This document shows, in pieces, positions 1 through 16,717 of a stretch of 64,000 nucleotides of DNA. How positions within the stretch are numbered: position 1 is the stretch's first letter; each line of letters starts with the position of its first letter. Made by a program: the position numbers and the translations under genes. The DNA comes from an uncultured Pseudomonadota bacterium. GTDB lineage: Bacteria > Vulcanimicrobiota > Vulcanimicrobiia > Eremiobacterales > Eremiobacteraceae. The stretch is taken from assembly GCA_963736005.1 (NCBI GenBank), contig CAVTNB010000001.1:992001-1056000 (forward strand), given 5' to 3'. The notes beneath the pieces were generated by a model, which was given only the letters and a program-made list of their open reading frames with translations, was not told the origin of the DNA and did no database searches.

Positions 1-1
1 T

Positions 2-940
2 CGCGGAAAACCCAAAACGTTACAGCTCGTCGCCCAAGTGGTCCCCGACACGAACTCGGCGCTGACGATGTTACGCTCTGGACAGCTCGACTGGTCGCTG
101 CAATCGCCCGCGCAGCGCCTCGCATTGGGCCGCAGCCCCAACGTGCGATTCGTCTACGTTCCGTTTTCAGGCTTTGGAGCAATCGCATTCAACTGCCGAA
201 AGTCACCCTTTGACGATGCTCGCCTGCGCATTGCCATCGCGATGGCAATCGATCGCAAACGCTTGAGCGCCGGAATTACCGGCGGCCAGTACGCGGTCGC
301 CGAGAGCGATCAACCGCCATTTGGGTGGGCACACGATCCTTCTGTACGATTGCCAGCATTCGATCCGCAGCGGGCTGACCGAGCGTTGGATTCGCTTGGA
401 TGGCGACGGGATCTGGATGGCATGCGCCGCAGAGGTGGCCGGATGCTCGCCATAACGTTCATGACGTTTCCCGAAAGCGACACAGCCGTGCGCACCGCTG
501 AGTACGTGCAGCAAATGCTGCGCGAGCGCGGCATCGATGTCATCGTAAAGAAAGTGACCTTGGCACAGTTCTACCTGCCTGCGTCCGAGGGCGGCATGCT
601 CTTATCGGGCCGCTTCGATCTCGCCTATGTCGTGTGGCGATCCGGACTCGATCCGGACGACTCCGACCTCGTCACGTGCCGTGGCTCAGCGAACTATTCG
701 GGGTTCTGCGACGGCAAGGTCGATGCACTTGAGATGCGCGCGCTCGCAGTGCAGAACCCTGAGGTTCGGCGTTCCCTTTATTTCCAAGTCCAACAACGTC
801 TCGCGGCGCAGGTTCCCTACGACTTCCTTTACGCGCCGACGTACAGCTACGCCGTGCAGCCCAACGTCGGCGGCTTCCACCCAACCCCGTTCTCGCCCAC
901 GTGGAATGCGTACGATTGGGTAAAAACGAGCGAATTATAG
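2..940 (+). CDS. Peptide/nickel ABC transporter substrate-binding protein (SBP family 5), 5'-truncated by the window edge
   Basis: Frame is open from position 2. Contains IAFNCRKSPFDDARLRIAIAMAIDRK, FDPQRA..LD..GW and NYSGFCDGKVDAL, typical of the OppA/DppA C-terminal half. Confidence 0.9.
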   Translation, partial: RGKPKTLQLVAQVVPDTNSALTMLRSGQLDWSLQSPAQRLALGRSPNVRFVYVPFSGFGAIAFNCRKSPFDDARLRIAIAMAIDRKRLSAGITGGQYAVAESDQPPFGWAHDPSVRLPAFDPQRADRALDSLGWRRDLDGMRRRGGRMLAITFMTFPESDTAVRTAEYVQQMLRERGIDVIVKKVTLAQFYLPASEGGMLLSGRFDLAYVVWRSGLDPDDSDLVTCRGSANYSGFCDGKVDALEMRALAVQNPEVRRSLYFQVQQRLAAQVPYDFLYAPTYSYAVQPNVGGFHPTPFSPTWNAYDWVKTSEL

Positions 941-1210
941 TTTTACAGTCCAGGTTTCGTCGTCGCCTGCTGGCACGAGCAATCCCACGTTGGTCAGCGT
1001 GTCGAAAAGCTCTCGGGTCCGTTTGCGATCGTGCTTGTTTGGCATACCCTGCCACAGCATCGCGGTGCGAGAGATCGTTACGGCACCGTCGCTTGAAAGC
1101 ACGTTGCTTGCGACAAAGTCAACAGTGAAACCAAGCTTTTGGAGGACGCCCATCACGTTGTCAAGCTGATCTTGTGCTATGAGGTAGTCGATGAACTGTT
1201 GCGCGGTCAT
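935..1210 (-). CDS. Hypothetical protein, 91 aa
   Basis: Natural-looking composition, ATG preceded by a TACAAT -10-like hexamer, fills the intergenic space. No recognised domain. Confidence 0.65.
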   Translation of the reverse strand: MTAQQFIDYLIAQDQLDNVMGVLQKLGFTVDFVASNVLSSDGAVTISRTAMLWQGMPNKHDRKRTRELFDTLTNVGLLVPAGDDETWTVKL

Positions 1211-1376
1211 CAGGGACGTATTGTAATCTAGAATGGCTGCTACCTCTGCACATGTGCGTTCCTCGAAGCAAAAAGAGCATCGTATAGCAACTCAGATGAA
1301 ACAAATTGAGGGTTCTGCGATACATATGACCGGACACCTTAAACCACCACAAACACTGCAAGGAGCACAACACATC

Positions 1377-1481
1377 ATGGCGCTCACAAAAGGAGTCCCG
1401 ACGCTGACCGATCATCCGACGATCGTCGTTCCGCCTCTTTCAGACGGACCGTTCCAAGGCTGGGGTACGCGCATCGGCTAA
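1377..1481 (+). CDS. Small peptide, 34 aa (MALTKGVPTLTDHPTIVVPPLSDGPFQGWGTRIG), possible peptide precursor
   Basis: AAGGAG RBS at 1360-1365 in an AC-rich leader, ATG at 1377, terminator hairpin directly after the stop. The ORF track extends it upstream to 1233. Confidence 0.6.
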   Translation: MALTKGVPTLTDHPTIVVPPLSDGPFQGWGTRIG

Positions 1482-1510
1482 CGGTCGGGTCTTCCCGACC
1501 GTTCCTTCTT
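1480..1510. terminator. Intrinsic terminator, possibly bidirectional
   Basis: AACGGTCGGG-tctt-CCCGACCGTT is a perfect 10-bp stem followed by CCTTCTT, lying between convergent genes. Confidence 0.7.
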
Positions 1511-1532
1511 CGGCGCTTCCACAGCGCGCGCG

Positions 1533-2924
1533 TTACGAAGAAGGCTCGCCCAGCAGCTGACGTAGCTGCGTGCGCCGGTAGTCAAAGACCGTTTGCAGAT
1601 CACGGCGCACCATCGGTAAAGCCACATTACTCAGTGGCGCCAAACCCAAAGCATAATCAACTGAATCCCGAACGCTGACTTCTTTTCCCTCAAGCGCGAA
1701 CTCATGCCGATGCCGCCATGCGCGGTAAGGACCGCGCACCGCAATGTCCTCGAATGCCTCTTCCGGCTTCCATTTTGTGATCAGCGTCTTCCATCGTACT
1801 GGGAAGCCTTTGACGTTCATATTGTATTCAATAACTGCGCCGCGTTGCATTTCGATCGGGAGCGGCGTCAGCAGATGGAGCCGGAGTTGCGGCGGGGTGA
1901 GCGATGTTAGGTTCCCTGCGTCAGAGAAAAACGCGAAGACTTTCGATAAAGGAGCATTGACCCGCTCCGCCACTTCGAAATGCTGGAGGCCAGGAGGTCG
2001 TCCGCCGGAGGGATCGATCAAGTCGAGCAGTGTTCGATCGAGTTGTGGGTGCTTCCAGATGAAGCCCGCGTCGTCGGCGACGGCCGGCAGAACTAACTGA
2101 CTTGCGGTCAAGCTGTCGGCGAATTCTCCAAGCGCGACCTTCAACGCGAGCGCGGGCGCCGGCATCAGCGAAGGTCTCCGCATGGCGTAGCCGAGCGCTT
2201 GCGCGAAGCGGCCATTGGTTGCGGGATCTGGAGCGACCGAGTTCACGGCGCCACTGAGGTCCTCGCGATCCAAGGCGAAGAGGAAGAGCGCAACTGCGTC
2301 TTCCAGATGAATCCAGGGCCACCACTGACGGCCTGAGCCCAGCGGGCCGCCGGCGCCGAAGCGAAACGGTGGGAGCATGGCTTCGAGCGCGCCGCCTCCG
2401 CGACCGAGCACAAGACCTTGGCGCAGTCGAACGACGCGCGTGCCAAACTCTTCCGCCACTTGCGCTTCGCGCTCCCAATCGATGCAGACGTGCGCCAAAA
2501 AGTCGGTGCCTGGCACCGAACTTTCTGTTAAAGGTTCATCTTCGCGCGAGCCGTAGTAGCCGCAAGCTGATGAGCTTAAGAGAACCGGTGGTCGTTCTTG
2601 ACATTCCCACATGGCCGTGACAAGATTTCTCGTCGTAACTTCCCGCGAATCGTGGATCTTTTTTTTCTTCTCTTCGCTCCAACGACCGGCAACGGTTTCA
2701 CCGGTGAGATGGATGAGAGCGTCAAGTCCAGCGATAGCTGTGGCAATGTCAGCGATCTTCCCATACGCAAGGTCGAGCCGGCGAATGTCGACCTCTCTTG
2801 GAAAGCACTCTAAGGAGGCAGGATTGCGGACGAAGGCGCGCACAGAATCGCCCCGTTCCGCAAGTGCCGCGACGAGTGCCCGACCGATGAATCCCGAAGC
2901 TCCGGTAACGCCAACTTTCTTCAT
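1533..2924 (-). CDS. TIGR01777-family NAD-dependent epimerase/oxidoreductase fused to a C-terminal SRPBCC domain
   Basis: VTGASGFIG Rossmann motif, DFLAHVCIDWE, GGPLGSGRQWWPWIH. C-terminal VFAFFSDAGNL..LTPP and GPYRAWRHRHEF are SRPBCC-like. Confidence 0.9.
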   Translation of the reverse strand: MKKVGVTGASGFIGRALVAALAERGDSVRAFVRNPASLECFPREVDIRRLDLAYGKIADIATAIAGLDALIHLTGETVAGRWSEEKKKKIHDSREVTTRNLVTAMWECQERPPVLLSSSACGYYGSREDEPLTESSVPGTDFLAHVCIDWEREAQVAEEFGTRVVRLRQGLVLGRGGGALEAMLPPFRFGAGGPLGSGRQWWPWIHLEDAVALFLFALDREDLSGAVNSVAPDPATNGRFAQALGYAMRRPSLMPAPALALKVALGEFADSLTASQLVLPAVADDAGFIWKHPQLDRTLLDLIDPSGGRPPGLQHFEVAERVNAPLSKVFAFFSDAGNLTSLTPPQLRLHLLTPLPIEMQRGAVIEYNMNVKGFPVRWKTLITKWKPEEAFEDIAVRGPYRAWRHRHEFALEGKEVSVRDSVDYALGLAPLSNVALPMVRRDLQTVFDYRRTQLRQLLGEPSS

Positions 2925-2988
2925 CGTTGCTTCTCAAGGTAACGGAATCTAAAGGTCCGCTGCTCCATGTTGCGAGAAATACTCTCCC

Positions 2989-3549
2989 ATGGGCGTTCAA
3001 GTCACTCTAGCTCTTTTCTTTGCCACAAGCGCAGCGCTCGTGCAACTTGCTTCGACCGCATTTTCTCTGACAAGCGGCGCGTTTGCCAACAACCGCACCA
3101 TTCCGCAGGTGTATTCCTATATGGGAAATGGCTGCACGGGCCACAACCTGTCGCCGCCATTGTCCTGGACATCGGGTCCTGCAAATACAAAAAGTTACGC
3201 GCTGACGGTTTTCGATCCCGACGCGCGGCCGGGTGTGGGGTGGTGGCATTGGGTGGTCTTTGACATTCCGGCAAACGTGATGAAGTTGCCGGCCGGTTCC
3301 GGGGCCGGAAGCGACGCTCTCACTCCGAAGGGATCGATTCAGGGAAGAAACGACTTTCAGATCATTGGATGGGGCGGACCATGCCCGCCGCCCGGGTCGC
3401 CTCCCCATCATTACGTTTTCACGCTCTACGCGCTCGATGTTGCACAGCTGTATGGGGTCAGCACGCTCACGAGCGGGCCCACCCTGCTCAAAGCCATGGA
3501 GGGTCACATCCTCGCCAAGACGACCTTGATAGGCCGCTTCGGCAGATAG
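2989..3549 (+). CDS. YbhB/YbcL family (PEBP, Raf kinase inhibitor-like) exported protein
   Basis: Signal peptide, NLSPPLSW, DPDA, WWHWVVFDIP, GPCPP..PHHYVFTLYALD. Confidence 0.93.
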   Translation: MGVQVTLALFFATSAALVQLASTAFSLTSGAFANNRTIPQVYSYMGNGCTGHNLSPPLSWTSGPANTKSYALTVFDPDARPGVGWWHWVVFDIPANVMKLPAGSGAGSDALTPKGSIQGRNDFQIIGWGGPCPPPGSPPHHYVFTLYALDVAQLYGVSTLTSGPTLLKAMEGHILAKTTLIGRFGR

Positions 3550-3553
3550 GATC

Positions 3554-3808
3554 CTAGCGCAGCAAACCCAGATTTGCGAACTCGGCAAGCATCCCATCGA
3601 CGTCGCCGCTGACCGTAACGCGGTCGGCCTCGCTCGCTTGGCAAATCGAATCGACGATATCCGCGGGCGTGCGCTGACCGTCGCACAGCTCGAGGATCTG
3701 ACCGGCCGTCCGGTTGAGAATGTGAACCTTTTGCGCCGAGAGGTGATACACGAGCACTTCTTCCCCAACGGTACGGATTTCGAGGTCGTCAGCTTTGCGA
3801 GGGTTCAC
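3554..3808 (-). CDS. PqqD-family RiPP recognition element (RRE)
   Basis: 84 aa with VGEEVLVYH, HILNRTAGQILELCDGQRT and C-terminal FANLGLL. GTGA overlap with the upstream gene. Confidence 0.92.
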   Translation of the reverse strand: MNPRKADDLEIRTVGEEVLVYHLSAQKVHILNRTAGQILELCDGQRTPADIVDSICQASEADRVTVSGDVDGMLAEFANLGLLR

Positions 3809-4929
3809 GTTCGTGCGACTCCTTGTTGATGGGGCGATTTTTCATCGCCCGATGTTTTCCCCATCGCGCCTGCATAGGCGAGCGCGAAGAGACCCGCGAT
3901 TGCCCGCCCAACGATGCGGCCGAACGAGCGCGCCTGCGGCTGCTCGTCGAGGCCATACCGTGGGTCGAGCAAACGCCAGGCCAGGGGACCCAGACGGCGA
4001 CCGGCGGCGTACCAGCCTTCAGTGAGCTGACAGCGCTGCGAAAAATAGAGGGGCACATCTTCACGCCGGGCGCTCCAATCAAGATACCGTCTTCCTTTTT
4101 GGGTCTGCGGCCACGCAATGCCGGCGATACGCGCCCCGAACGCCAGCGAGCCGCTGAATCGAATGGGATCGATTCGCTCCGCGGCAGCGATCTGCTGCAG
4201 CTCTTGTCTCTCGCTCTCGCCCAGTTTTGCCAGCAGGCGCGCGAGCAGCACGGAATCGCGCAAGCGGTGCAAACCTATCGAGTGCACTGCGAGGTGCAAA
4301 GCTGCTCCAGTGGCATCGAGGCACAACACATTACCGGCTGGGCCCTGCACCCATTCCGCGTGCGATCGCAACGTGTCCCAATCAAACGGAGTCGAGAGGA
4401 GTCCGGGCGGCGCAAGCGAGGTATGCAGCTCGACTGCGAATCCTGGAGTCGGCGGAAAAAGTGGGGCCGCATGATGGTGACGCGCCTTATACCGCTCGCG
4501 TAAGAGGGCATAATTTCGTTCGTCGTACCCCTGTGCGCGCAACGCTGCAACCGCATTTTCGAGCTCGGGCGCTGGAACGAGAATGTCGATATCGGAGCTC
4601 GCGTGCAGAACGAAGCCTGGTTCATCTCGGTATGAACGCGCCGCTCCTTTGAGGAGGGCGAACGGCACGTTGTGGCGCGCCAGCGTCGCCGCAATCGATT
4701 CTATCTGACCTCTCAAGGCAATCGTCAGCATCACGCCCTGCCGCACAAGAGGCTGGAGCACACGGCGAAGGTAATCGGCAGCTTCTCCTGCGGTTTGGAA
4801 CGTGCGCAGAGCTTCCACGAGTGTTGCGGAACACCCATGACGGCGAGCCACCGCAACGAGCGCCGACGGCTCGACCCGGGAGAGCGATCGCTCGAAGCCA
4901 ACGCGATCGCCCTGAACGACCGCGGCCAT
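3805..4929 (-). CDS. Nucleotidyltransferase (NTP_transf_5-like), probably the C-terminal part of a frameshifted S26-peptidase-NTase fusion
   Basis: LLKGAA, SSDIDILV and VELH motifs. The frame stays open upstream of ATG 4929 to at least about 5010 (LAGRRIGRALPWRRERSYLALVDS). Confidence 0.88.
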   Translation of the reverse strand: MAAVVQGDRVGFERSLSRVEPSALVAVARRHGCSATLVEALRTFQTAGEAADYLRRVLQPLVRQGVMLTIALRGQIESIAATLARHNVPFALLKGAARSYRDEPGFVLHASSDIDILVPAPELENAVAALRAQGYDERNYALLRERYKARHHHAAPLFPPTPGFAVELHTSLAPPGLLSTPFDWDTLRSHAEWVQGPAGNVLCLDATGAALHLAVHSIGLHRLRDSVLLARLLAKLGESERQELQQIAAAERIDPIRFSGSLAFGARIAGIAWPQTQKGRRYLDWSARREDVPLYFSQRCQLTEGWYAAGRRLGPLAWRLLDPRYGLDEQPQARSFGRIVGRAIAGLFALAYAGAMGKTSGDEKSPHQQGVART

Positions 4930-4999
4930 CGAATCGACGAGCGCAAGGTACGAGCGCTCGCGACGCCACGGAAGCGCTCTTCCAATTCGGCGTCCAGCA

Positions 5000-5443
5000 A
5001 GCTCGAGCTCGAAATGGCAGCGCGCGCAGAGCTCGAGTGCGGGCGTAGAACGCGCCCCGCATACGAAATATCTTCGTATCGACCCTTACGGCACCCGACC
5101 GGTCGTTTTCAAACACTGCTTTCACTTTGCCGACGAGTACGTTCGGGGCGGGATACTCAGGCGACCACGGCCGGGCGTCACCACATGTTTGCAGCTTGCC
5201 ATCGCGGAGACTGGTGACGCGATGGGCAACGAGCTTCCCGTCACTTTCGAAGACAACGACGTCCCCGACGGCAATTCGTTCGGCAACCGGGGCAAGTTCG
5301 AGCACCATTGGTTCCCGCATGAGCGGCAACATGCTCGAGCCCTGCATGGCGAGTCTCGGGGTGCTTGCCGATCCAAGGAGCAACTTGACCGCAGCGATGG
5401 CCGTCGCTGGATTTTGGATCTTCGATTCTGGACTGAGGCTCAC
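5000..5443 (-). CDS. S24/S26 signal-peptidase-like domain, N-terminal part of a probable fusion with the NTase (frameshift at about 5000-5012)
   Basis: GTG at 5443 overlaps the upstream stop (GTGA). GSSMLP (catalytic Ser), GDVVVF, VAHRV (Ser/His type) and CGDA. The frame becomes non-protein-like after ..RALPFRAR. Confidence 0.8.
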
Positions 5444-6393
5444 GGGCCAGCTACCGCAAACATCGGCTTCTCGCGACGAACGGTCGCAGCGATGAGGAGC
5501 GCGGTATCGTCTGGCGTTCCAAGCGTGAGCGCATAGGCGCGCGCCTGCTGCAGGAGTCCGGCAGCAGCGGCTAAGCGGTCCATTCCGGGCGCCGCTCCAG
5601 AAAAGGATGACTCGAGCAGTCGCTGGAGCGCATCGGGGCGCTCCAGCGGCTCTGCCCTGGGCGTGCGGGATTTTCCGGTAATGAAAAAGATTGACTCCAA
5701 CTTTGCGGGTTTTGGCAACGGACTTGCGCCAAAAACTTCGCAGAACTGAATGCATTCCCAATCTTTGCCCGCGTGCCCGCGCAGCGGGCGGGCCATGACG
5801 TCATCGTCTGGCACCTGTTCTGAGAGCAGCAGGTCGATACCGCCCGCGCGAACATTCATCGCTCGAGGAAATGGATAGACAAGTCCGTCCTTGAGCACGC
5901 ATCGTTCGTCCGTGTAGAGACCCATGCCGCGCCGCGCACATGCAAACGCGGTCGTCGACTTGCCACCGGTCGAAATCGCAGAAATGGCTGCGGCCGAGTT
6001 GCCAACGCTGACAGCGGCGGCATGAAATGATAGCAACGAAGGATGTATCCCAAAAAAACCGCGCCCAGTGACCGCGTCAGCGAGGAACGCCACCACGCCC
6101 GTTCCCCGCAAAACCAGAGGATATCGGAACGCCTCGCCCGGCTCGGTAAAGAAGCATGGTTCTTCGTCATCGCTCGCCACAGCGCAGCTGACAAAGTCCG
6201 GACGGCCGCTGCTCAAGAAACTGCGATAGCGCCAACGAAATGCATCGGCTTCGCCCGGCTGATTAAAATGCGCCGCGATTTTCGTGCCAAACCAATCGAC
6301 CAGCACCACCTCGCGCGCCCGATCGAGCAACGCCTGCCGCTTTGCGGCGTCGAGTTCTATGGCAATGAGGTTAGCGGCCGTTACGATGATCAC
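5440..6393 (-). CDS. HPr kinase-related P-loop kinase B
   Basis: FHAAAV...AISAISTGGKSTT...LYTDE and VYPFPR. Start placed at GTG 6393 by the GTGA overlap with the upstream stop. Confidence 0.82.
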   Translation of the reverse strand: MIIVTAANLIAIELDAAKRQALLDRAREVVLVDWFGTKIAAHFNQPGEADAFRWRYRSFLSSGRPDFVSCAVASDDEEPCFFTEPGEAFRYPLVLRGTGVVAFLADAVTGRGFFGIHPSLLSFHAAAVSVGNSAAAISAISTGGKSTTAFACARRGMGLYTDERCVLKDGLVYPFPRAMNVRAGGIDLLLSEQVPDDDVMARPLRGHAGKDWECIQFCEVFGASPLPKPAKLESIFFITGKSRTPRAEPLERPDALQRLLESSFSGAAPGMDRLAAAAGLLQQARAYALTLGTPDDTALLIAATVRREKPMFAVAGP

Positions 6394-7283
6394 GGCAGCA
6401 GGGCTTCGATTGCGTCGGCGCCATGCTGCGGTGTGCTCGCAACGATCCGGTAGCACGGAATGCCGGCCAACATTTCCGCCGTATCGACAAAACGCTCGAA
6501 GCCTTCGGTATGAGCGTTGAGTCGTTTCGTAAAATCGACAGCCGCAACCGCGGGTGAGACCTGCTCGGTTGTGGTGTTGGTTGAGCTCCGCTCGAGCATG
6601 AAGGCCGCTGTCAGCGGCGCAGGTTCCGCAAACACGTCCTCGCCAAACACGTCGCCGGCATCGATGTTATCCCAAACGCGATCGCCATGCTGCGTGCGCG
6701 GCACAGACGCTTCGCAGACCTGGCGCAAACGCGGATGGTGAAAGACTGAGAGCGTGCGCTCGCGGATGAGCAGCGCCCGGGGCAAGCCCGACACAAACCG
6801 ATCCGCACGGCGTATGAAGGCAAATTCGTCGCTGTAGAAACGTGCACCGCGGGTGAGGAGTTCGAGAGCGAGGGTCGTCTTGCCGATGCCCGACTGAGCA
6901 GAGATCAAGACGGCACAATTGCCGATGCGCAAGGCAGCGGCATACAGCGAGCGCCATGTCGTGTTTTGTCGAAAGCTCAAACGAATGAGCTTGCTGGAAC
7001 CGTAAAACGCTAACCGGAAGTTTGTGGTTGGTCTTTCGTCTGGAAACTCGACTGACTCGCCGTTAAAGTGCAGCCAATCGGCGCCATTGTGTGCCAGGAT
7101 CGAACCGCTGTCGCAGGTTGCGTCAAGCGGATCCGGCAACGGCACGATCGTGCGGCGATACGCCGCGCAAAAGTAGTCTAAAATTTCGGCGGCATCGCTG
7201 CGAACCACGAGCGTGCGCTCGAGTGTCGCAAATGCCTTTTGTTGCATTACGCTCGGGGACGTTGTGGCTGTGCTCGCAAGCAT
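6390..7283 (-). CDS. HPr kinase-related P-loop kinase A
   Basis: LYAAAL...LISAQSGIGKTT...FYSDE and GLPR. ATG 7283 has an AAGGA RBS. Confidence 0.82.
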   Translation of the reverse strand: MLASTATTSPSVMQQKAFATLERTLVVRSDAAEILDYFCAAYRRTIVPLPDPLDATCDSGSILAHNGADWLHFNGESVEFPDERPTTNFRLAFYGSSKLIRLSFRQNTTWRSLYAAALRIGNCAVLISAQSGIGKTTLALELLTRGARFYSDEFAFIRRADRFVSGLPRALLIRERTLSVFHHPRLRQVCEASVPRTQHGDRVWDNIDAGDVFGEDVFAEPAPLTAAFMLERSSTNTTTEQVSPAVAAVDFTKRLNAHTEGFERFVDTAEMLAGIPCYRIVASTPQHGADAIEALLP

Positions 7284-7376
7284 CGCTGCTTCCTTACCAT
7301 AGAAAAGTAGAGCGGCGCTCTCATGGCGGCCGCCCATTCCCTATGTCGCTTGCAAGAACCGAAGAAGGAATGAGAG

Positions 7377-7389
7377 CGCCTCATCGCGC
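7377..7389 (-). promoter_or_regulatory. 13-nt motif GCGCGATGAGGCG, copy 1, upstream of the kinase operon
   Basis: An identical copy in the same orientation lies at 7804-7816, upstream of the precursor gene. Confidence 0.35.
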
Positions 7390-7581
7390 TCGGCCAGCTT
7401 CAGACCAAGAAGATGACCTTTAATGTGTATTGTGCACCTTTTACGGCTCGGCTTCCTAATGGCGTTTTGAGGACGGTATTGGTCCAAAAGACCCTCGCAT
7501 TCGGTGAGGCCTCAGCAACTCTTCCCGCAGCGAGTGGAGCAGATGGAAAACCTCGCCGGGCATTGAGTCAATGGTAGCCGC

Positions 7582-7633
7582 CGCAATAAGAAGGAGCGAG
7601 GGTGCGTGCCTTGGCACGCACCCTCGCTCCTTC
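7582..7633 (-). terminator. Strong hairpin/terminator downstream of the precursor peptide gene
   Basis: Perfect 21-bp inverted repeat (7590-7610 and 7613-7633), followed on the minus strand by TTATT, 25 nt after the peptide stop. Confidence 0.8.
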
Positions 7634-7658
7634 GTCTGCGATCGGTTTCGACGCTGAG

Positions 7659-7766
7659 TTATCTATCCCAGGTGACGTTACTGCCGCCTTCGCACCAGTG
7701 GCCAAGAGCGGTTGCGAGAACGATGTTCGCGTCGAGCGATGCAATGATCTTCGGCGTGCTATACAT
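7659..7766 (-). CDS. Putative RiPP precursor peptide, 35 aa (MYSTPKIIASLDANIVLATALGHWCEGGSNVTWDR)
   Basis: Translated by hand, as it is below the ORF-track cutoff. GAGGAG RBS at 7779-7784 in an AC-rich leader, YxxPxI leader motif, downstream hairpin, same strand as and directly upstream of the RRE operon. Confidence 0.8.
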   Translation of the reverse strand: MYSTPKIIASLDANIVLATALGHWCEGGSNVTWDR

Positions 7767-7803
7767 TGTGGATGTTTTCTCCTCGGAGTTTTTTGTTGTG
7801 GAA

Positions 7804-7816
7804 CGCCTCATCGCGC
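7804..7816 (-). promoter_or_regulatory. 13-nt motif GCGCGATGAGGCG, copy 2, upstream of the precursor
   Basis: Identical to 7377-7389. Confidence 0.35.
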
Positions 7817-7973
7817 CCTTCGCACGGTGTTACCCGATGCTGCATCCCTCGTTCCATGTACGCTCTTTTCTTCCCCAAGAATTTCGATTCGATGTGGTAG
7901 AGACAAAGCCTCACCCCATATGGAAATGGGCCTCGCTCCGGCGCGTTCCTGGGCCGCCGATATTGTATATGAC

Positions 7974-8690
7974 ATGACCTCGGCAAACGGGTTATCGGTT
8001 CAACACCTTACGCGGAAATTTGGAAAACTCACCGCGGTAGATGATCTTTCGTTTCACGCGGCCCGCGGATCGATTCTGGGGTTACTCGGCCCAAACGGCG
8101 CAGGAAAAACGACAACCTTGCTTTGCTTGGCCGGGTTGTTGCGCCCCGACGCGGGGACGCTCGCCCTCGACAACGCTCCTCTAGGACCAGACCGCGGACG
8201 AGCCATCGCGCTCATCCCGGAGACGCCGGAAGTCTACGCCATGCTCACCGTTTGGGAGCACTTGGTTTTTGTCGCCAAGAGTTGCAAACTGACAGGCGAT
8301 TGGGCAGTTCGCGCGACAGATTTGCTGCAGCGCTTGGACCTAAACGACCGGAGAGACACGCTCGGCGAGGCACTGTCCAAGGGCATGCGCCAAAAAACGC
8401 TCATCGCGGCGACCGTCCTTGCTGGAGCACCCGTGCTGCTCCTCGACGAGCCAATGATCGGCCTCGACCCGAAAGGACAGCGCGAGCTTCGAGGCATTTT
8501 GCAGGAGCTGCGTAATGCGGGAACCGCCATTGTTCTGAGCACGCACTTGCTCGAATCCGCCGAAGCGATCTGCGATAATGTGCTCGTTCTCAACCACGGT
8601 CAGGCCGTAATCAGCGCGCCGATTGCAGAGTTGCACTTCGGCGAATTTGGGCGAAGCTTGGAAGACGTTTTCTTGGAAGCGACGCAATGA
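7974..8690 (+). CDS. ABC transporter ATP-binding protein (export type)
   Basis: GPNGAGKTT, LSKGMRQK, LLLDEP, STH. Start placed at ATG 7974; the ORF-track extension to 7602 is not protein-like. Confidence 0.93.
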   Translation: MTSANGLSVQHLTRKFGKLTAVDDLSFHAARGSILGLLGPNGAGKTTTLLCLAGLLRPDAGTLALDNAPLGPDRGRAIALIPETPEVYAMLTVWEHLVFVAKSCKLTGDWAVRATDLLQRLDLNDRRDTLGEALSKGMRQKTLIAATVLAGAPVLLLDEPMIGLDPKGQRELRGILQELRNAGTAIVLSTHLLESAEAICDNVLVLNHGQAVISAPIAELHFGEFGRSLEDVFLEATQ

Positions 8691-10312
8691 GCGACGTCGC
8701 GGCGCTGACGTATCTCGAAGCGCGCATGGCGTTCAACCGCTTTCGCCAGGTCTTGCGCCAGCCCGGACGACTCGTCTTGTGGACGTTGTTCCTTGCGTGG
8801 CTTGGACTTTTCTTCTTCACGCGCGTCTCCCACATTTCGGGGGGACCATACGGCCTGTTGATGCCGCAGAGCGTATCGCTGTTTTACGCGTTCGTTCCGG
8901 CCGCCTATATCATGCTTTTAGGGTTTCAAATTCGCTCTGGGAGTCGACGCCCGCCAGCAACGTTCGCCTATCCGGCGGATGCTCGCTTTCTTCTTGGCTC
9001 GCGTCTTAACCACGTGCTGGTCGTTTTTTGGCTGCAACTGCGCGAGGTCGCCTTTTCCGGAAGCCGAGTGTTTCTTGGCCTTTTCTTCGTCTCGTGGAAT
9101 TTTGCCGGCAGCGCGGGGGGACTCGTGCTGGCAACCGTTGCGTTATTGTCCGCGTACATTATATCTTTCGGCGTACGCTTGCCGGTATTTTTGGCGCAGC
9201 GCCGCATGCCGGAAGTTCCATTCGGAACGTTTGGGATTGGGTTGATGTGCGCGGGCGGTCTGACACTGCTGTTTCCAATTGCCCTCGCGTTTGCCTACGG
9301 CAACGTTCACTTGGCCTTTATTTCGGCCCAAACTGCGGTGTTCGCTCCGGGATCGTGGATCGTGGAGGCGCTCGCCGGCGATCATCGCGCACTCGCAGCA
9401 CTCTTGACCCTCGCGTTCGTCATGATTATTGGCGGCTCGGTTGCGGCAAAGGACGCTTATCCCGAAATTTGGGAGGCCTCCTCGCGGCTCTATGCCCTCC
9501 GAACGCTCGTTGCAAGCGGACGAGGGCTTTGGAATCGCGAGGCGTTGCGAGGCTTGCGAGACCCAGACCGAGTTCAGTCTGGCGTCCGTCTGGAGCGCGT
9601 TGCTTCATCGTCTGGTCGGCACGCGCCGGCCGGCGCCCTTTCGCTGGTTTGGAAAGAATGGATCGGACTGCGGCGCACGCCCGGAGGTTTGAGCGGCTCG
9701 GTGCTGTGGCTCTTCGGGGCTTGCGTCCTTGGATATCTCGCGGGACTCGCCGCAACGACGCTGACTTTCTTCATCTTAGTGGGCCCGCTCTTTGCAATTG
9801 CTAACATTTTCATCGTCATCGGATCGCAGAGCACGATCAATCTGGGCATCGAGCTGCGTAAGCCAATCTGGTGGCTTGCCCGTTCTCAGTTGCGAGACCG
9901 AATTCTCACGTGGATTCTGGGCACAACCATGCGGGTCGGTCCGCCGCTTGTCGCCGGTACGATCGTGGCCGGCGTCGCCATGCATTCGTGGCTCGTTATC
10001 GCTGCGAGCGCGCCTCTGATCCTCGTGTCGCTGTTCTTGGTGCAAAGCATCGGTGTGGCGTCGTATGTCGTGCTTCCCGGGCGCAACGATCTGCGCGGAC
10101 CGGGCTTCATGCTGCGGATTTTTGTCACGTACCTTGCGCTTATGCCGCCGGCAATTGGCTGGGCGGTAGCACAGTTGCTAAGCCAAAGCGCCGCTCTCGG
10201 GCTCTTGGTTGGCCTGACGGCAGCGTATGTGGAAGGGTGGACGCTTGCGATGTTCGCCGCCTCACGCCTCGAACAAAACGCGATGGCCTACGCGGCCGCC
10301 GAACAACGCTAG
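8687..10312 (+). CDS. Putative ABC exporter permease
   Basis: Many hydrophobic helices in two halves (LVWKEW in the second half). ATGA overlap with the ATPase. Confidence 0.85.
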   Translation: MSDVAALTYLEARMAFNRFRQVLRQPGRLVLWTLFLAWLGLFFFTRVSHISGGPYGLLMPQSVSLFYAFVPAAYIMLLGFQIRSGSRRPPATFAYPADARFLLGSRLNHVLVVFWLQLREVAFSGSRVFLGLFFVSWNFAGSAGGLVLATVALLSAYIISFGVRLPVFLAQRRMPEVPFGTFGIGLMCAGGLTLLFPIALAFAYGNVHLAFISAQTAVFAPGSWIVEALAGDHRALAALLTLAFVMIIGGSVAAKDAYPEIWEASSRLYALRTLVASGRGLWNREALRGLRDPDRVQSGVRLERVASSSGRHAPAGALSLVWKEWIGLRRTPGGLSGSVLWLFGACVLGYLAGLAATTLTFFILVGPLFAIANIFIVIGSQSTINLGIELRKPIWWLARSQLRDRILTWILGTTMRVGPPLVAGTIVAGVAMHSWLVIAASAPLILVSLFLVQSIGVASYVVLPGRNDLRGPGFMLRIFVTYLALMPPAIGWAVAQLLSQSAALGLLVGLTAAYVEGWTLAMFAASRLEQNAMAYAAAEQR

Positions 10313-10320
10313 TCGCCAGC

Positions 10321-10614
10321 CTAGCGGCGGCGACGCACCGATTTGCGCAGGGCTTTGACCGCTTTGCTGAGGTGACGCCGAACGACGCCGCGCACGATCG
10401 ATTCAACTTCATTCTTCTGCGGATAGCGCGCGAGTTGCGGCACAACTCCGACGACAACTTGGCACGAGGTGCAGGCCACGGTCCAAATCGTGAGTTCACC
10501 GCCGGCGCGCTCGGGGCGCGCTCGAAAGGTAGCCGCCTTGAGGCAGTGCGGACATTTTCGTTTAAAGATTTCCCGATCTTCGATTGGTTTGGCGCGGGTT
10601 CTCTTGCGTGGCAT
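10321..10614 (-). CDS. Small basic protein with a CxxC...CxxC (zinc-ribbon-like) motif
   Basis: CPHC and CTSC, Arg/Lys-rich termini, starts 4 nt after the SBP stop. Confidence 0.55.
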   Translation of the reverse strand: MPRKRTRAKPIEDREIFKRKCPHCLKAATFRARPERAGGELTIWTVACTSCQVVVGVVPQLARYPQKNEVESIVRGVVRRHLSKAVKALRKSVRRRR

Positions 10615-10618
10615 GCTG

Positions 10619-11506
10619 TTACCTGTGTGTCAGATCCGTCCCGAAGCTCTCCTTCGAGAGGCGCGAAAGCGTGCCGTCCTTGTGCATGGCGCTGACGGCT
10701 TGTTCGACCGCTTGGTAAAAGCGCTTTGGGTCAAGCGGGCTGTTCTTATCGATCGCCACAGCAGCATCTTCGTAAAACACTGGCCCGCCAATGACTCTAA
10801 ATGGTCGCCCTACTTTAATCTGAAAGACGGCAAAAGGATACGATGTCAGGACAGCATCGAGCCGCACGCCGTCGCCCAGCGCGAGATCATCGAGCGCGAG
10901 TTGATCTGTGTCGTACGGGATCGCGCGTGCCTGCGGAGCTGGTACGAGGATATTCTCGCCGGTGAGGTCGAGGTGCCCTTCAAGATACGCCTGGTACGTC
11001 GTTGCGGTTCCGACTCCGATGCGTTTTCCGGAGAGCTCGGGGATCGAGGTGACCTTGCTCGCCTTGTTCACGACAAACGTGGCAGGGATGTAGTAATATG
11101 GCTCGGTGAAATAGAGCACGCGCTGACGATCTCGAGTGATCGTCATCGAATCCACGTTGACATCCCAGCGGCCATTCCAATTACCACCACTCGTGACGTC
11201 GAAATTGATGTCCAGGAAGACAGGTTGCACGCCGAGCCGGCGCGCAATCTCACGTCCGACCTCGACGTCAAAGCCGCGCCACTGCCCATCCGGTGACCGA
11301 AACGAGAGCGGTTGATAATTGGCGTCGGTGGAAATCAGGAGCTTGCCGCGTTTGCGAACTTCGCTCAACAGATCCGTGACACCGGAACCATTTGAGGCCG
11401 TCGCTTGTGGTGCCCCGCTGCGTTGCTGGCTGTTCTCACATCCCAGGAAAGACGTAAGCGCAGCCACGATCACGGCGACCGCAAGACAATACCTCAGGAT
11501 CTTCAA
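10619..11506 (-). CDS. Polar amino-acid ABC transporter substrate-binding lipoprotein (SBP family 3)
   Basis: Lipobox FLGC, GFDVEVGREIARRLG, FTEPYY, DGTLSRLS. Start uncertain (11506 or 11545). Confidence 0.9.
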   Translation of the reverse strand: MKILRYCLAVAVIVAALTSFLGCENSQQRSGAPQATASNGSGVTDLLSEVRKRGKLLISTDANYQPLSFRSPDGQWRGFDVEVGREIARRLGVQPVFLDINFDVTSGGNWNGRWDVNVDSMTITRDRQRVLYFTEPYYYIPATFVVNKASKVTSIPELSGKRIGVGTATTYQAYLEGHLDLTGENILVPAPQARAIPYDTDQLALDDLALGDGVRLDAVLTSYPFAVFQIKVGRPFRVIGGPVFYEDAAVAIDKNSPLDPKRFYQAVEQAVSAMHKDGTLSRLSKESFGTDLTHR

Positions 11507-11596
11507 ACGACGCCACCGCCCGTTGTCGATTTTGGTCAGGTACAAACTTTGGTCTATTTTAGAAGAGCAGCGCAGGGGGACCTGCGATTTACCGAT

Positions 11597-12034
11597 TTAT
11601 TTCGCGACGGTGTGAATATATGCGAGAGCGGCGACAACACCGAACGCAAGACTACAAAGCACCATGACGATGCGCTGCACACGCTGCGTGGACACTTCGT
11701 GGACGGAAACTTTGGGAGGTTGCCCGATGCGCCACACGGACCTTGCCGTCCAAACCATCGTAAGCGAAAGTAGCAGCAGATAGACGGGCAAAAAAACCAG
11801 GAGCGGCAGCAGGGCATTTTTGACTGAGGCGATCTCATGCACGAGCAACAAAAACGTCACGATGAACCCAAGGCCGGCCGAGCCCAAAATCATGAGCCGG
11901 CCTGCGAACCAACTAGCGAGGACGTCGCGCGTCGAAACCAGCTGCGATGTGACGCTTCGTTCAGCCACGTCAAGCATTGTAACACGAAACCTCAAACTTT
12001 CCGAGGGTTGCGACGGCTGGTTTCGCACAGCCAT
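11597..12034 (-). CDS. Hypothetical membrane protein (about 3 TM segments)
   Basis: Three hydrophobic segments; start uncertain. Confidence 0.55.
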   Translation of the reverse strand: MAVRNQPSQPSESLRFRVTMLDVAERSVTSQLVSTRDVLASWFAGRLMILGSAGLGFIVTFLLLVHEIASVKNALLPLLVFLPVYLLLLSLTMVWTARSVWRIGQPPKVSVHEVSTQRVQRIVMVLCSLAFGVVAALAYIHTVAK

Positions 12035-12078
12035 ACGGTGATATAGATTACACCCCCGGCCTTGCCGATAACTTATAG

Positions 12079-12654
12079 ATGTGCGAACACAATCGGGCGA
12101 TCGATCGACGCGCATTTCTCTTCGGTGGCGCTTGTGCTTTTGCGCTCAGCGCAATGCCCGCGCTCGCACGCGCGGCGCTCGCGAGCACTGCTCCGGATCG
12201 TTATCTTTTGTTCTTAGAACGCATCGACACGGGCGAGTACGCGGCGGAGCCATTCACGCTCGATGGCAAGACGTTGTACTGGCCAGGGTACAAAAAATTA
12301 TGCGCCGTGCTGCGCGACGAGCATGTGCCGCCGGAAATTGGTTTTGTGCAAATCAACGTTCGCACGATCGAAGCGCTGTGGGCGGTGCAGTCATACTTGC
12401 GTCGCGACAGCATCAACGGTCCTATTGTGGTGCACAGCGGCTACCGCACGCCGCAAACGAACTCGCAAACGGAGGGTGCAGCGCGGCTTTCATATCACAT
12501 GTGGGGCAAGGCGGTTGACTTCCACGTACCCGGTATCGCGCTGAGTGACTTGGCGGGCATCTGTGAGGCATGTCCAATCAGCGGCGGGGTCGGCTATTAT
12601 CCCGAAGGCTGGGTGCACATGGATACCGGTCCCAGGCGTTCGTGGGCGGGCTAA
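12079..12654 (+). CDS. YcbK/DUF882 family (peptidase M15-type) protein with a Tat-like signal
   Basis: DRRAFL twin-arginine motif, SGYRTPQTN, SYHMWGKAVD, GGVGYYP...VHMDTGPRRSW. Confidence 0.9.
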   Translation: MCEHNRAIDRRAFLFGGACAFALSAMPALARAALASTAPDRYLLFLERIDTGEYAAEPFTLDGKTLYWPGYKKLCAVLRDEHVPPEIGFVQINVRTIEALWAVQSYLRRDSINGPIVVHSGYRTPQTNSQTEGAARLSYHMWGKAVDFHVPGIALSDLAGICEACPISGGVGYYPEGWVHMDTGPRRSWAG

Positions 12655-12674
12655 CGTCGCGCGCTCTTTAGACT

Positions 12675-12699
12675 GGGCGACTTAACAGTCGCCCACTAC
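12675..12699. repeat. GTAG-type REP palindrome (type A)
   Basis: GGGCGAC-ttaaca-GTCGCCC-actac, which reads GTAG plus palindrome on the minus strand. Confidence 0.75.
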
Positions 12700-12753
12700 A
12701 AAGCACGCAATGAGGGCATGAATTAACCGTCTCGTACAGAAACCCGTCCTATC

Positions 12754-13740
12754 ATGCCTGCAGTGGCAATGCCGGTCGACGACGGGACCGAGGCGCGGCC
12801 GCGCACTCCAAAGCTCGAGAAGCTCCAACAGCACATTCGCGCGCTGGCCAAGCGCAAGAATGCCGTCATCATCGCGCACATCTACCAACGCCTCGAAATC
12901 CAAGAGGTTGCCGACTTCATCGGCGACAGCCTCAACTTAAGCCGCGAGGCAGCGCGCACCAAGGCGGACGTCATCGTCTTTTGCGGCGTGCACTTTATGG
13001 CGGAAACGGCCAAGCTCCTCAGCCCGAATAAACTTGTGTTGTTACCGGACATGAAGGCAGGCTGCGGTATGGCGGACATGATCACCGCCGATCAAGCCCG
13101 CGGTTTTCGCGCCCAATATCCGGGCCGGCCGCTCGTGACGTACGTCAATACGTATGCGGAGGTAAAGGCGGAGTCGGACATCTGCTGCACCTCGACCAAC
13201 GCCGCAACCGTCGTTCGCTCGCTGCCCGATAAAGAGATCTTGTTTGCGCCGGACATGTATCTCGGCGGCTGGGTGCAAAAGCGGCTTCCCGACAAAAAGA
13301 TTATCACATGGCACGGTTATTGCCCGACGCATTTCGTTATCCAACCTTCGATGGTCATCGCGCAAAAGCAAAAGCATCCGCATGCGCTCGTGCTCGCGCA
13401 CCCGGAATGTTCGCCCGAGGTACTCGAACTCGCCGATTACGTGGGCAGCACCCAAGGCATGATGGACTATGCCGGCTCCAGCGACGCGCCCGAGTTCATG
13501 ATCCTCACCGAGGCTGGACTCTTGCTGCGGCTCAAGGCGCTGTATCCTCATAAACGCTTCTACTCCATCGCGCCGTGCCCGCACTGTCCGTATATGAAGT
13601 TCGTGGAACTTGAAAAAGTTGCGGCCTGTCTGGAAAACGATCTCAATCCAATCGAAATTCCGACCGACATCATGCTGCGCGCGCGCACCAGCATCGAGCG
13701 CATGATGACTGTGTCAAACGCGGTCACGCCAGCAGACTGA
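12754..13740 (+). CDS. nadA: Quinolinate synthase
   Basis: IGDSL, IVFCGVHFMAETAK, AGCGMAD, YVNT, HPEC, CPYMK. Confidence 0.97.
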   Translation: MPAVAMPVDDGTEARPRTPKLEKLQQHIRALAKRKNAVIIAHIYQRLEIQEVADFIGDSLNLSREAARTKADVIVFCGVHFMAETAKLLSPNKLVLLPDMKAGCGMADMITADQARGFRAQYPGRPLVTYVNTYAEVKAESDICCTSTNAATVVRSLPDKEILFAPDMYLGGWVQKRLPDKKIITWHGYCPTHFVIQPSMVIAQKQKHPHALVLAHPECSPEVLELADYVGSTQGMMDYAGSSDAPEFMILTEAGLLLRLKALYPHKRFYSIAPCPHCPYMKFVELEKVAACLENDLNPIEIPTDIMLRARTSIERMMTVSNAVTPAD

Positions 13741-13752
13741 ATTCGTACCGTC

Positions 13753-15312
13753 ATGATGCGAACCGACGTGCTTGTCATCGGATCGGGGGCCGCAGGATTG
13801 CTCCTTGCGCTGCACTGCGCCGAAAAGGGCCTGCGGGTCACCATCGTGACGAAGGGAACGATCGAGGAGTCGAACACCGCGTGGGCGCAAGGCGGCGTGG
13901 CTGCATCGCTCGATTTAGAGGAGGATTCGACTCAGGCCCACGTCGCCGATACCCTTGCGGCCGGCGCCGGTCTTTGCAACCGAGCCGCCGCTGAGATCGT
14001 GGCGGAAGAGGCGCCTAAGCGAATCGAGGAACTGCGCGCGCTTGGCGTCGCTTTCAATCTTTCGGTGACTGGCGAGCTAGCGCTCACGCGCGAGGCGGCG
14101 CACAGCCATGCACGGACGGTTTTTTCCGAAGATGCAACCGGCAAAGCGATCTCGACCACGCTTGCCCAAAGAGCGCTCCAGCATCCGAACGTGGCGGTTG
14201 TCGAGCGCGCCACCGCCATATCGCTCATCCTTGACGGCGGACGCTGCGCGGGCGCCTGGATCTTTGCAGAGACTGAGGCGGTCTCGATTGTCGCGTGTTT
14301 CGCGACGGCGCTCGCGACCGGCGGAGTCGGCCAGGTGTACGAGCGAACGACCAATCCACCGGGTGCAACTGGTGATGGACTTGCGCTGGCTATCGCGGCG
14401 GGCGCGGCGTTGGCCGACGTTGAGTTCGTCCAATTCCATCCGACCGCACTTGCCGTTGCGGGAGCGCCTGCGCTGTTGGTGTCTGAAGCGGCGCGCGGCG
14501 AGGGCGGCATTTTGGTCAACAAAGACGGACGACGGTTCTGCTTCGACGCGGATCCACGAGGGGAATTGGCGCCTCGCGACATCGTTGCTCGCGCGATTTT
14601 TCACGAAATGCAGCGAACCGGGAGTGGCGTCTGGCTCGATTTGCGCCCTATCGGATCGCCCGACTTCTTGCACAGACGGTTCCCGAATATTGCGGCTGCC
14701 TGCTCGCGTTTCGGCGTCGATATCACCACGCAACCGATCCCGGTCGGCCCAGCGGCACACTACCACATGGGTGGGGTGCTCACCGATTTGCACGGGCGGA
14801 CGACGGTTCGATCGTTGTATGCGGTTGGCGAATGCGCCTGTACGGGCTTGCATGGCGCGAATCGACTCGCCGGCAACTCACTCGCAGAGTGTTTGGTGTT
14901 CGCCTGCCGCGCGGCGGACGATATCGGCGCTGCACCGGCGGCACCCGATCCATTCGAGCTCGCTCACATACCAAAGACCGTCTTGGCCATGATGACCGTT
15001 CAACCGCTGCGCGCCTTGATGTGGAAGTCCGCGAGTGTCGAACGAGACGGACCGGAACTGGCGGCGCTGCGCCAACGACTCACTCACTGGCCCGTTTCCA
15101 TGTCACCACTCTCGCGAGCGGCGCTTGAATCCCGCGCGTTGCTCAATGCGGCTCGTTACATCGCAGGGGCAGCGCTGTACCGTGAGGAGAGCCGCGGCGC
15201 CCATTATCGCGTTGATTTTCCAGAGCGCGATGATGCTCACTGGCTGGCGCGCATCGTTTGGGTGGGCGACAGTCATAAACTCGAGCCGCTCGCCACGCCG
15301 GCGATAACTTAG
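13753..15312 (+). CDS. nadB: L-aspartate oxidase
   Basis: GSGAAGL, AQGG, EAAHS, QFHPT, SEAARGEG, HYHMGG, GLHGANRLA, ESRGAHYR; lies between nadA and nadC. Confidence 0.95.
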   Translation: MMRTDVLVIGSGAAGLLLALHCAEKGLRVTIVTKGTIEESNTAWAQGGVAASLDLEEDSTQAHVADTLAAGAGLCNRAAAEIVAEEAPKRIEELRALGVAFNLSVTGELALTREAAHSHARTVFSEDATGKAISTTLAQRALQHPNVAVVERATAISLILDGGRCAGAWIFAETEAVSIVACFATALATGGVGQVYERTTNPPGATGDGLALAIAAGAALADVEFVQFHPTALAVAGAPALLVSEAARGEGGILVNKDGRRFCFDADPRGELAPRDIVARAIFHEMQRTGSGVWLDLRPIGSPDFLHRRFPNIAAACSRFGVDITTQPIPVGPAAHYHMGGVLTDLHGRTTVRSLYAVGECACTGLHGANRLAGNSLAECLVFACRAADDIGAAPAAPDPFELAHIPKTVLAMMTVQPLRALMWKSASVERDGPELAALRQRLTHWPVSMSPLSRAALESRALLNAARYIAGAALYREESRGAHYRVDFPERDDAHWLARIVWVGDSHKLEPLATPAIT

Positions 15313-15359
15313 GGCGCGGGATGCGGCATCCAGCTCTCGAGCAACCATCGTTCGTTCCG

Positions 15360-16609: not shown

Positions 16610-16626
16610 AGGTTCGCTGCCACAAT

Positions 16627-16717
16627 GGGCGACTTGACGGTCGCCCGGTACGAGGGGCGATTTTCCAATCGCCCCCTACCTTCGCGGCGTTGGGGCGATT
16701 TTCCAATCGCCCCCTAC
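16627..16717. repeat. REP cluster: one type A plus two identical 26-nt type B palindromes
   Basis: GGGCGACttgacgGTCGCCC at 16627-16646; GGGGCGATTTTCCAATCGCCCCCTAC at 16654-16679 and 16692-16717. Confidence 0.85.

Follow-up and report, generated by a model that had tools for sequence, protein, structure and literature searches.

Does a 35-residue reading frame encode the substrate of the enzymes whose genes lie next to it, and what would those enzymes make of it? In the window, by which we mean the whole 64,000-nucleotide stretch of DNA analysed, the frame and a hairpin on the minus strand are followed by an operon with the order kinase 1, kinase 2, S26 peptidase, NTP_transf_5 nucleotidyltransferase and RRE (Table 1). 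An earlier note on this DNA had proposed that the frame is a precursor peptide. The novelty that it implied was too high, as Popov et al. had already described the type of pathway in 2026 (PMC13381572), for the linear polyphosphorylated peptides (LPP) of Paenibacillus alginolyticus, with the genes lppA-K-B-S-D-N. According to the portions of that paper available, LppK polyphosphorylates Ser3 of the core, LppB recognises a YxxP motif and cleavage by LppS depends on the RRE.

Table 1. Features of the locus (positions in the window)
Feature	Position	Strand	Remarks
Precursor ORF	ATG 7766 to TAA 7661-7659	-	35 aa, MYSTPKIIASLDANIVLATALGHWCEGGSNVTWDR
Shine-Dalgarno sequence GAGGAG	7779..7784	-	12 nt 5' of the ATG, A/C-rich surroundings
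Precursor leader	7701..7766	-	22 aa; predicted RRE-binding motif Y2xxP5; A-L-G end
Precursor core HWCEGGSNVTWDR and stop	7659..7700	-	one Ser, codon 7682-7680
Hairpin 3' of the precursor stop	7590..7633	-	perfect stem of 20-21 bp, short U tail
Two-hairpin element, copy 1	7794..7849	-	5' of the precursor; variable P1, then RGCGC-GAUGAG-GCGYUC
Two-hairpin element, copy 2	7367..7422	-	5' of kinase 1
HprK-like kinase 1	6390..7283	-	297 aa; P-loop and D-E retained; Tyr114 at the HprK His position
HprK-like kinase 2	5440..6393	-	317 aa; His, P-loop GK[ST]T and D-E retained
S26 (archaeal/ER-type signal peptidase) domain	4998..5443	-	lacks a membrane anchor; intact GSSM and AHR motifs
NTP_transf_5 (PF14907) domain	3805..4997	-	SxDxD intact; own ATG 4929 without Shine-Dalgarno sequence; out of frame with S26
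Discrete RRE (PqqD family)	3554..3808	-	84 aa; TIGR04353 32.9 bits, cut-off 35
ABC ATPase and PF16962 permease, divergent	7971..10312	+	syntenic in close relatives

A precursor gene missing from the ORF list

Re-reading gave the same start, stop, GAGGAG ribosome-binding site and AC-rich leader as the earlier note had reported. It was also right that the ORF track had overlooked the gene: the frame is visible there solely as the tail of a 50-residue ORF from ATG 7811, and a 362-residue ORF of the opposite strand, an over-extended ABC ORF, overlies it. We considered ATG 7811 as the true start and rejected it. This codon lies inside the loop of the upstream element described below and is not preceded by a Shine-Dalgarno sequence, and its equivalent is in frame with the precursor in just 14 of 31 cases, some of them with stops.

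Two observations argue that the frame is a gene. Compared with the nearest ortholog, in genome G038, three leader codons have changed, all synonymously, and the core has three synonymous and three non-synonymous changes; where the window precursor has V-T-W, the ortholog has V-Y-G, so that the Thr is gone. Moreover, among the 1088 ORFs of 28-50 residues in the whole genome that begin with a Shine-Dalgarno-preceded ATG, nine start with MYxxP, and eight of these nine belong to the precursor family. A profile of the leader likewise has eight matches in the genome, at 24-45 bits, with the next best at 9.9. We therefore hold with high confidence that the 35-residue ORF is a real precursor gene. The region around its downstream hairpin (7570-7680) folds at -62.9 kcal/mol (z -8.2), and the hairpin is either a terminator or a stabilising stem.

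Conserved leaders and variable cores

The family set was collected from fetched loci and comprised 100 distinct precursors, of which three from unpublished genomes were dropped to leave 97. Our other tallies take in the unpublished genomes G036, G048, G190, G192 and G268, and no conclusion hangs on them. A profile built on 38 precursors matches in 46 of the 301 genomes of the class. Across the phylum, it matches in 45 of 401 genomes, all within two families, and has no match in 74 genomes from 19 other families. With a conserved leader and a variable core, the family is what the earlier note expected of a genuine precursor peptide. Its suggestion of a leader motif of the RRE-binding kind also held up, as Tyr2 and Pro5 are invariant in all 97 leaders, in part owing to the seed pattern. 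A Shine-Dalgarno-like word precedes 81 of the 97 members, and 3' hairpins with z<-2 lie behind 53.

In the family alignment (n=97), conservation stops at residue 22, falling from 0.8 to 3.4 bits, which is where the leader/core boundary had been placed. The boundary had also been attributed to an S26 cut by the (-3,-1) rule. Here the small residues before G22 stand, in 97 of 97 members, but the argument itself is weakened, because residues 18 (92/97) and 20 (78/97) also fit and because LppS, whose N-terminal helix meets the RRE, cuts after F-E-T (PMC13381572, available portions). Glu is at position -2 in 13 of the 97 leaders, and five of these 13 have A-E-T, like the F-E-T of LPP. As the best of the three small-residue sites, G22 probably precedes the cut, judging from the alignment.

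The cores are 5-23 residues long (n=97) and are barely touched by the leader profile. Ser is present in all 97, and in all 63 that remain after dereplication, where 15.2 and 10.3 Ser-less cores would be expected, respectively (0 of 20000 shuffles). Cys is absent from 17 cores, single in 26 and double in 54; none has three or more, against 15.6 expected (0 of 20000 shuffles). Both extremes also went unreached in 20000 shuffles of the dereplicated set. The first Ser is at core position 1-4 in 69 of 97 cores and at position 7 in the window precursor, and in the 42 single-Ser cores the residue preceding it is mostly Gly or Cys. By analogy with LppK, the single core Ser of the window precursor is the likely site of phosphorylation.

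A subtype can be seen in the closest genera, where the operon-adjacent precursor mostly has a His-led, aromatic/acidic core with G-S (seven sequences: window 7700-7662, L004, L005, L008, L010, L018 and L079). The orphans, that is, precursors away from the operon, differ in having C-S-x(3-6)-C.

Enzymes of the operon

All four gene junctions within window 3554-7283 are GTGA stop/start overlaps, which points to translational coupling of the operon genes. Measured against curated cut-offs, every family score falls short except that of NTP_transf_5 (PF14907, 90.8 bits). The S26 domain reaches 33.1 bits (E 4.5e-8) with TIGR02228, whose cut-off is 51.85, and its nearest solved sequences are SEC11A/C. 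The catalytic motifs are retained among relatives, with Ser, His and GD of S26 in 16 of 16 and S-D-x-D of the nucleotidyltransferase in 13 of 13.

Of the first 20 related loci, 14 have peptidase and transferase as a single ORF, as do seven later ones; the two are separate genes in four (L050, L051, L127, L130). In the window, one extra base at 4998 lets the S26 frame continue to 4622. This base is absent from G038 and from a close-strain contig in run X1, the only run covering the locus (X2-X4 gave scattered pieces). Judged from these two sequences, an error of assembly is a likelier cause than a genuine lesion. A second one-base difference from G038, at 3818, alters the C-terminus of the nucleotidyltransferase only. 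Full-length fusions form about 60 clusters at 50% identity, and a related NTP_transf_5 is fused to GT2 in P0063 and to HEAT repeats in P0082, P0084 and P0100.

A model of the G038 fusion (pLDDT 84.9) has an N-terminal helix ahead of the S26 fold; searching with it in Foldseek returned nothing at E<=0.001. The nucleotidyltransferase domain is modelled with an ANT(2'')/MenT-like fold (Z 13.5, rmsd 3.1 and 161 aligned residues against ANT(2'')).

Kinase 2 has, as modelled (pLDDT 87.7), a PEPCK/HprK fold (Z 16.8, rmsd 4.5, 299 aligned with PEPCK; Z 11.7, rmsd 2.9, 130 aligned with HprK). The two kinases are paralogs (hhalign 99.9%, 22% identity) and differ in conservation. Kinase 2 keeps the His of HprK in 17 of 18 sequences and D-E in 18 of 18. 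Kinase 1 has Tyr at the His position in 13 of 15 and His in the other two. In both kinases D-E stands where HprK, PsmK and BsfK have D-D, which is a point against an LPP-like reading. Every complete cluster examined has kinase 2, none has kinase 1 alone, and in nine clusters kinase 2 directly follows the precursor, with no kinase 1 gene. From this gene content, we predict that kinase 2 is the core enzyme and that its paralog, kinase 1, has an accessory role. The earlier note had offered one Ser and one Thr as sites for the two kinases. We reject this division because kinase 1 appears to be accessory and because the Thr is lost in the nearest ortholog; across the family, Thr occurs in 56 of 97 cores, against Ser in every one.

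With the RRE profile, PqqD and actinobacterial lasso RREs score higher than LppB (9x8z), which has just E 0.52. Co-folding of the RRE with the precursor gave 0.58 against 0.07 for the best control, with 98% contact agreement between runs and a partner pLDDT of 58. Of 78 solved pairs, 51 attain the mark applied, as do 2 of 108 mismatched pairs; at or below 0.60 lie only 5 of the 78 solved pairs, yet all 4 of the mismatches that passed, and complexes of a like kind have been solved. The co-fold thus lends weak backing to binding of the precursor by the RRE.

The absence of a cyclase observed earlier extends to 60 loci and window 1-20000, which also lack a B2 protease and a radical-SAM motif; for Pfam, 36 of the 178 neighbours called were chosen. 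A radical-SAM variant was rejected, as no CxxxCxxC-type motif occurs in the same 60 loci and window region.

Transport and neighbouring genes

It might seem natural to regard the divergent ABC pair (Table 1) as a dedicated exporter. The distribution of its genes does not bear this out, as the permease also occurs in the precursor-negative genomes G002, G010, G014 and G060 and was not found in the precursor-positive G028 and G062. An ABC-2 ATPase and permease lie in or beside 10 of 20 related loci, and none lies within the window operon. At a contig end of the host genome, beside a sulfotransferase gene, L060 (G000:C1:2051533-2053370) carries an ABC-2 pair that has 53% and 63% identity with the one found within related clusters and could export in trans. 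Window 12754-16205 and 17272-20389 hold, by eye, what we take to be an operon for quinolinate/NAD synthesis (nadA, nadB, nadC) and genes for a Vgb-like propeller and an S9 peptidase, with no visible tie to the cluster.

Precursors scattered over the genome

The host genome has eight precursors, seven of them orphans among unrelated genes, each with a Shine-Dalgarno sequence and a 3' hairpin; related genomes have up to seven. In most loci examined, one or more precursors sit directly at the kinase/S26/nucleotidyltransferase/RRE genes. We infer that the seven orphans are served in trans by the enzymes of the window operon.

Kinase 1 was found in 58 of the 301 genomes, among them 37 of the 46 precursor-positive ones, which are kin and therefore not independent. 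Of the remaining nine precursor-positive genomes, three (G183, G219 and G269) have cluster genes without kinase 1, and two are weak matches. The 21 of 58 kinase-1-positive genomes with no precursor match are a further point against an LPP-like reading. Named homologs of the operon enzymes come from Eremiobacterota and are annotated as 'hypothetical' or as a generic peptidase, and a search of named genome contigs with one protein returned the G038 locus alone.

Several neighbourhoods in these genomes deserve mention. Between two orphans (G000:C1:265295 and 267433; L054:5296-7526) lie a gene for DUF6065 and one resembling a 2OG-Fe dioxygenase, possibly for extra tailoring or by chance. DUF4760 is found near three precursor loci, as a Pfam match (L055:2937-3551) and as look-alikes by eye (L056:312-899 and 7288-7893, L116:8099-8692); it may merely be an expanded family. 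Further RRE/kinase-like/NTP_transf_5 sets in the host genome, L059 (G000:C2:26000-43000) and L061 (G000:C3:18000-29000), carry GT2, B2-like protease, sulfotransferase and ABC-2 genes and contain no member of this precursor family.

A two-hairpin element upstream of precursors and kinase 1

The genome contains the word GCGCGATGAGGCG exactly six times, against an expectation of 1.4; five of these copies precede precursors and the sixth precedes kinase 1. In 36 copies from nine published genomes, the element consists of a 6-bp hairpin (P2) with a GAUGAG loop (31/36), just after a hairpin of variable sequence (P1). P2 is paired in 97.7% of alignment cells, with G-U and C-G to A-U changes, and P1 in 67.7%, in a sequence-only alignment. 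Covariation is 0.283, against 0.201 when shuffled (0/500) and at most 0.172 when slid. It is suggestive rather than proof, because the structure was derived from the same sequences and these are related.

At E<0.01, a covariance model finds only the same six sites in the genome, only two of them in the window. With 150 candidates scored per genome, 11 of the 32 genomes of the family match, all of them precursor-positive, and G028 and G048 have precursors with no match. The unpublished genome G036, outside the training set, has four matches, all before a precursor or kinase 1. No match was found 5' of the clusters of the other precursor-bearing family. Rfam gave no credible match in window 7250-8000 or in six element-carrying loci. 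As for control of the element by an ANTAR protein, PF03861 has no match in the host genome, but it has none in any of 14 control genomes either, so that this absence carries no weight.

The enzyme operon has one upstream element in common with five precursors out of the eight, and all of these are probably co-regulated. We favour, with reasonable though not strong confidence, a 5' leader RNA; that the element is a palindromic DNA operator seems to us unlikely. Hexamers resembling a -10 box lie before 16 of the 36 elements, against 9.4 in shuffles (20/2000 reach 16), an excess that is modest and unclear at the window precursor, and a sigma-70 scan of 7300-8200 gave no site. Judging from the upstream sequences, precursors fall into two regulatory classes, with and without the element. 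The three precursors that lack the element (L054:7434, L057:4885 and L058:5108) have TACAAT/TAGAAT hexamers upstream, two of them with another short GC hairpin. In L105 (G032:C74), three tandem orphans have one two-hairpin element each.

Proposed pathway and alternatives

We consider it likely, by analogy, that the window ORF encodes the precursor located at the cluster itself, and that the pathway is LPP-like, depends on the RRE and leads to a Ser-phosphorylated linear peptide. What the analysis itself establishes is the genes, their conservation, the catalytic motifs, the co-occurrence and the shared element. The RRE would bind Y2xxP5, as has been demonstrated for LppB and LppA. Kinase 2 would phosphorylate, and perhaps polyphosphorylate, the core Ser, a phosphorylation demonstrated for LppK, PsmK and BsfK, with kinase 1 acting as an accessory or regulatory paralog. 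Guided by the RRE, the anchorless S26 peptidase would remove the leader, most likely after G22; RRE-dependent cleavage has been demonstrated for LppS. The fused NTP_transf_5 would then cap the phosphoserine, most likely with a hexose, as in PsmN-dependent pseudomycoidin, or with a nucleotide. This is the weakest step, and its only precedent is PsmN, because LppN was inactive in a heterologous test (PMC13381572, available portions). An ABC-2 exporter would release a short linear peptide, in which two-Cys members could close a disulfide, and the seven scattered precursors would be processed by the same enzymes.

A more elaborate version is doubtful in our view. It would have one machine of RRE, twin kinases and peptidase-transferase turn up to eight dispersed precursors into phosphoserine peptides capped with sugar or nucleotide; kinase 1, a His-to-Tyr pseudokinase, would alter or regulate the chemistry, and a two-hairpin leader RNA would coordinate precursors and enzymes post-transcriptionally.

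It is important to consider other products of the same genes. The processed peptide might not be released at all, its phosphoserine serving as a primer, carrier or signal in cell-surface glycan synthesis. Glycosyltransferase, sugar-transferase or polysaccharide-export genes do lie beside eight sampled loci (L041, L046, L048, L049, L051, L114, L124 and L128), LPP clusters likewise occur in capsule loci (PMC13381572, available portions), and one relative has the nucleotidyltransferase-GT2 fusion. However, no glycan genes adjoin the operon in the window or in close relatives, and eight cores per genome with disulfide-like Cys pairs better fit a diversified set of products or signals; we regard this role as quite improbable. 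Phosphorylation might also serve as activation, with the Ser dehydrated and Cys added to form a lanthionine-type ring, and with kinase 1 or the nucleotidyltransferase as the lyase. The altered active site of kinase 1, the presence of Ser in all cores and of Cys in 80 of 97, and the usual distance of 1-3 residues between them would suit such a ring. The 17 Cys-free cores would not, and a maximum of two Cys at variable spacing is rather the pattern of disulfides. No lyase or cyclase family was found among the scanned neighbours, and the phosphate is retained in the products of LppK, PsmK and BsfK, as far as the available portions of their descriptions go (PMC13381572, PMC6993621, PMC10368454), so that we give ring formation only a slight chance.

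Two further explanations were considered. The product could be a small peptide of an ordinary kind, secreted by means of a Sec signal that the housekeeping signal peptidase removes, while the adjoining enzymes have another substrate. Such a signal would account for a hydrophobic stretch with an A-x-G end and for seven copies distant from the enzyme genes; it is highly improbable given the Asp/Glu in the middle of this stretch in 92 of 97 leaders, the invariant YxxP, the tight linkage and co-occurrence with the RRE operon and the element held in common with kinase 1. Still harder to credit is a lasso precursor whose cyclase is encoded elsewhere, for all its YxxPxI motif and an RRE closest in sequence to lasso and PQQ RREs. 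The host genome does have two full-length Asn_synthase matches and two B2-like genes. Both Asn_synthase genes lie amid polysaccharide genes, and one of the two retains an intact MCGI glutaminase start; neither they nor the B2-like proteins have a match in the 60 loci or window 1-20000. The window core has no Asp/Glu at positions 7-9, whether counted from G22 or H23, which agrees with the earlier view that it is not a lasso core; family-wide, just 21-24 of 97 cores have such a residue, and only one of the 97 leaders has Thr as its penultimate residue.

Comparison with known systems

In NCBIfam, the kinases and the RRE match best to the HPr-rel-A models (TIGR04352, kinase A; TIGR04353, PqqD-family; TIGR04355, kinase B), with all scores under the cut-off (48 and 38 bits against 200 for the kinases; RRE in Table 1). 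The open literature searched contains no mention of these model names. Within the same phylum, phospeptin is reportedly a phosphorylated linear peptide produced by a single lanthipeptide-dehydratase-like maturase. This compound, from Ca. Eudoremicrobium, inhibits elastase (PMC9259500, available portions), and its enzymes and leader are unrelated to those of the window.

Paeninodin-type lasso peptides (PsmK/PsmN, BsfK/BsfN) resemble the window system in an HprK-like Ser kinase aided by a discrete RRE and in an uncharacterised nucleotidyltransferase with a DxD motif. In the portions of the source papers available, PsmN is needed for the hexose on phosphoserine of pseudomycoidin and was modelled on an ANT(2'') structure (PMC6993621), and BsfK requires both its His and its D-D, and the RRE boosts it (PMC10368454). 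The window system differs from these peptides in lacking a macrolactam cyclase and a B2 cysteine protease in the cluster, the ring acceptor at core 7-9 and Thr(-2).

The closest comparison is with LPP, whose description, in the portions available, states that LPP are restricted to Bacillota, that some loci lie beside polysaccharide genes and that, as of May 2026, the final product and function are unknown (PMC13381572). Both systems have an archaeal-type signal peptidase, a discrete RRE, a kinase resembling HprK, NTP_transf_5, an ABC exporter and no macrolactam cyclase, as well as a YxxP leader and a variable core containing Ser; by eye, the Ser and His motifs of S26 correspond to the LppS row. 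They differ in the leader, as the LPP consensus YxxPxVLxHQxIxFETxxS and Px9Fx[TA] are matched by none of our 97, and Tyr is at -21 rather than -16. Cores are 5-23 residues and Cys-rich here, against 45 residues in LppA, and the position of Ser varies where LppA has a single S3. There are two kinase paralogs, a peptidase fused to the nucleotidyltransferase, and a transporter of ABC-2 rather than MsbA-like type. By eye, Pro stands here where LppS has its catalytic Asp93, and the next residue is an invariant Glu. Precursors are dispersed, up to eight per genome, against one to three per LPP cluster, and the host, judged by the named homologs, is of the Eremiobacterota and not the Bacillota. The portions of the LPP data set available (NCBI, 2019; PMC13381572) have no Eremiobact-, Vulcanimicrob- or WPS-2 entry and no precursor containing words of the Eremiobacterota leader, and no description of such a variant was found in the open literature searched.

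Because its gene set is that of LPP, for which cleavage and Ser phosphorylation have been demonstrated, the Eremiobacterota system is a variant of the LPP-type pathway and not a new class. New here are the eight dispersed precursors per genome and the two-hairpin element with its GAUGAG loop, which connects scattered precursors with a single operon and is a candidate new regulatory RNA in its own right. If the more elaborate version above were true, this would be the first RiPP regulon with a dedicated RNA motif in the literature searched for this peptide variant, and would offer tractable substrates for the unsolved NTP_transf_5 reaction. The very short cores allow easy synthesis and an easy mass-spectrometry readout, the fusion couples the unsolved transferase step with cleavage, and about 100 natural substrates together yield rules (Ser always, at most two Cys). 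The logic of LPP is thereby extended to Eremiobacterota; the leader there is a different one, the cores are very short, and peptidase and transferase are fused.
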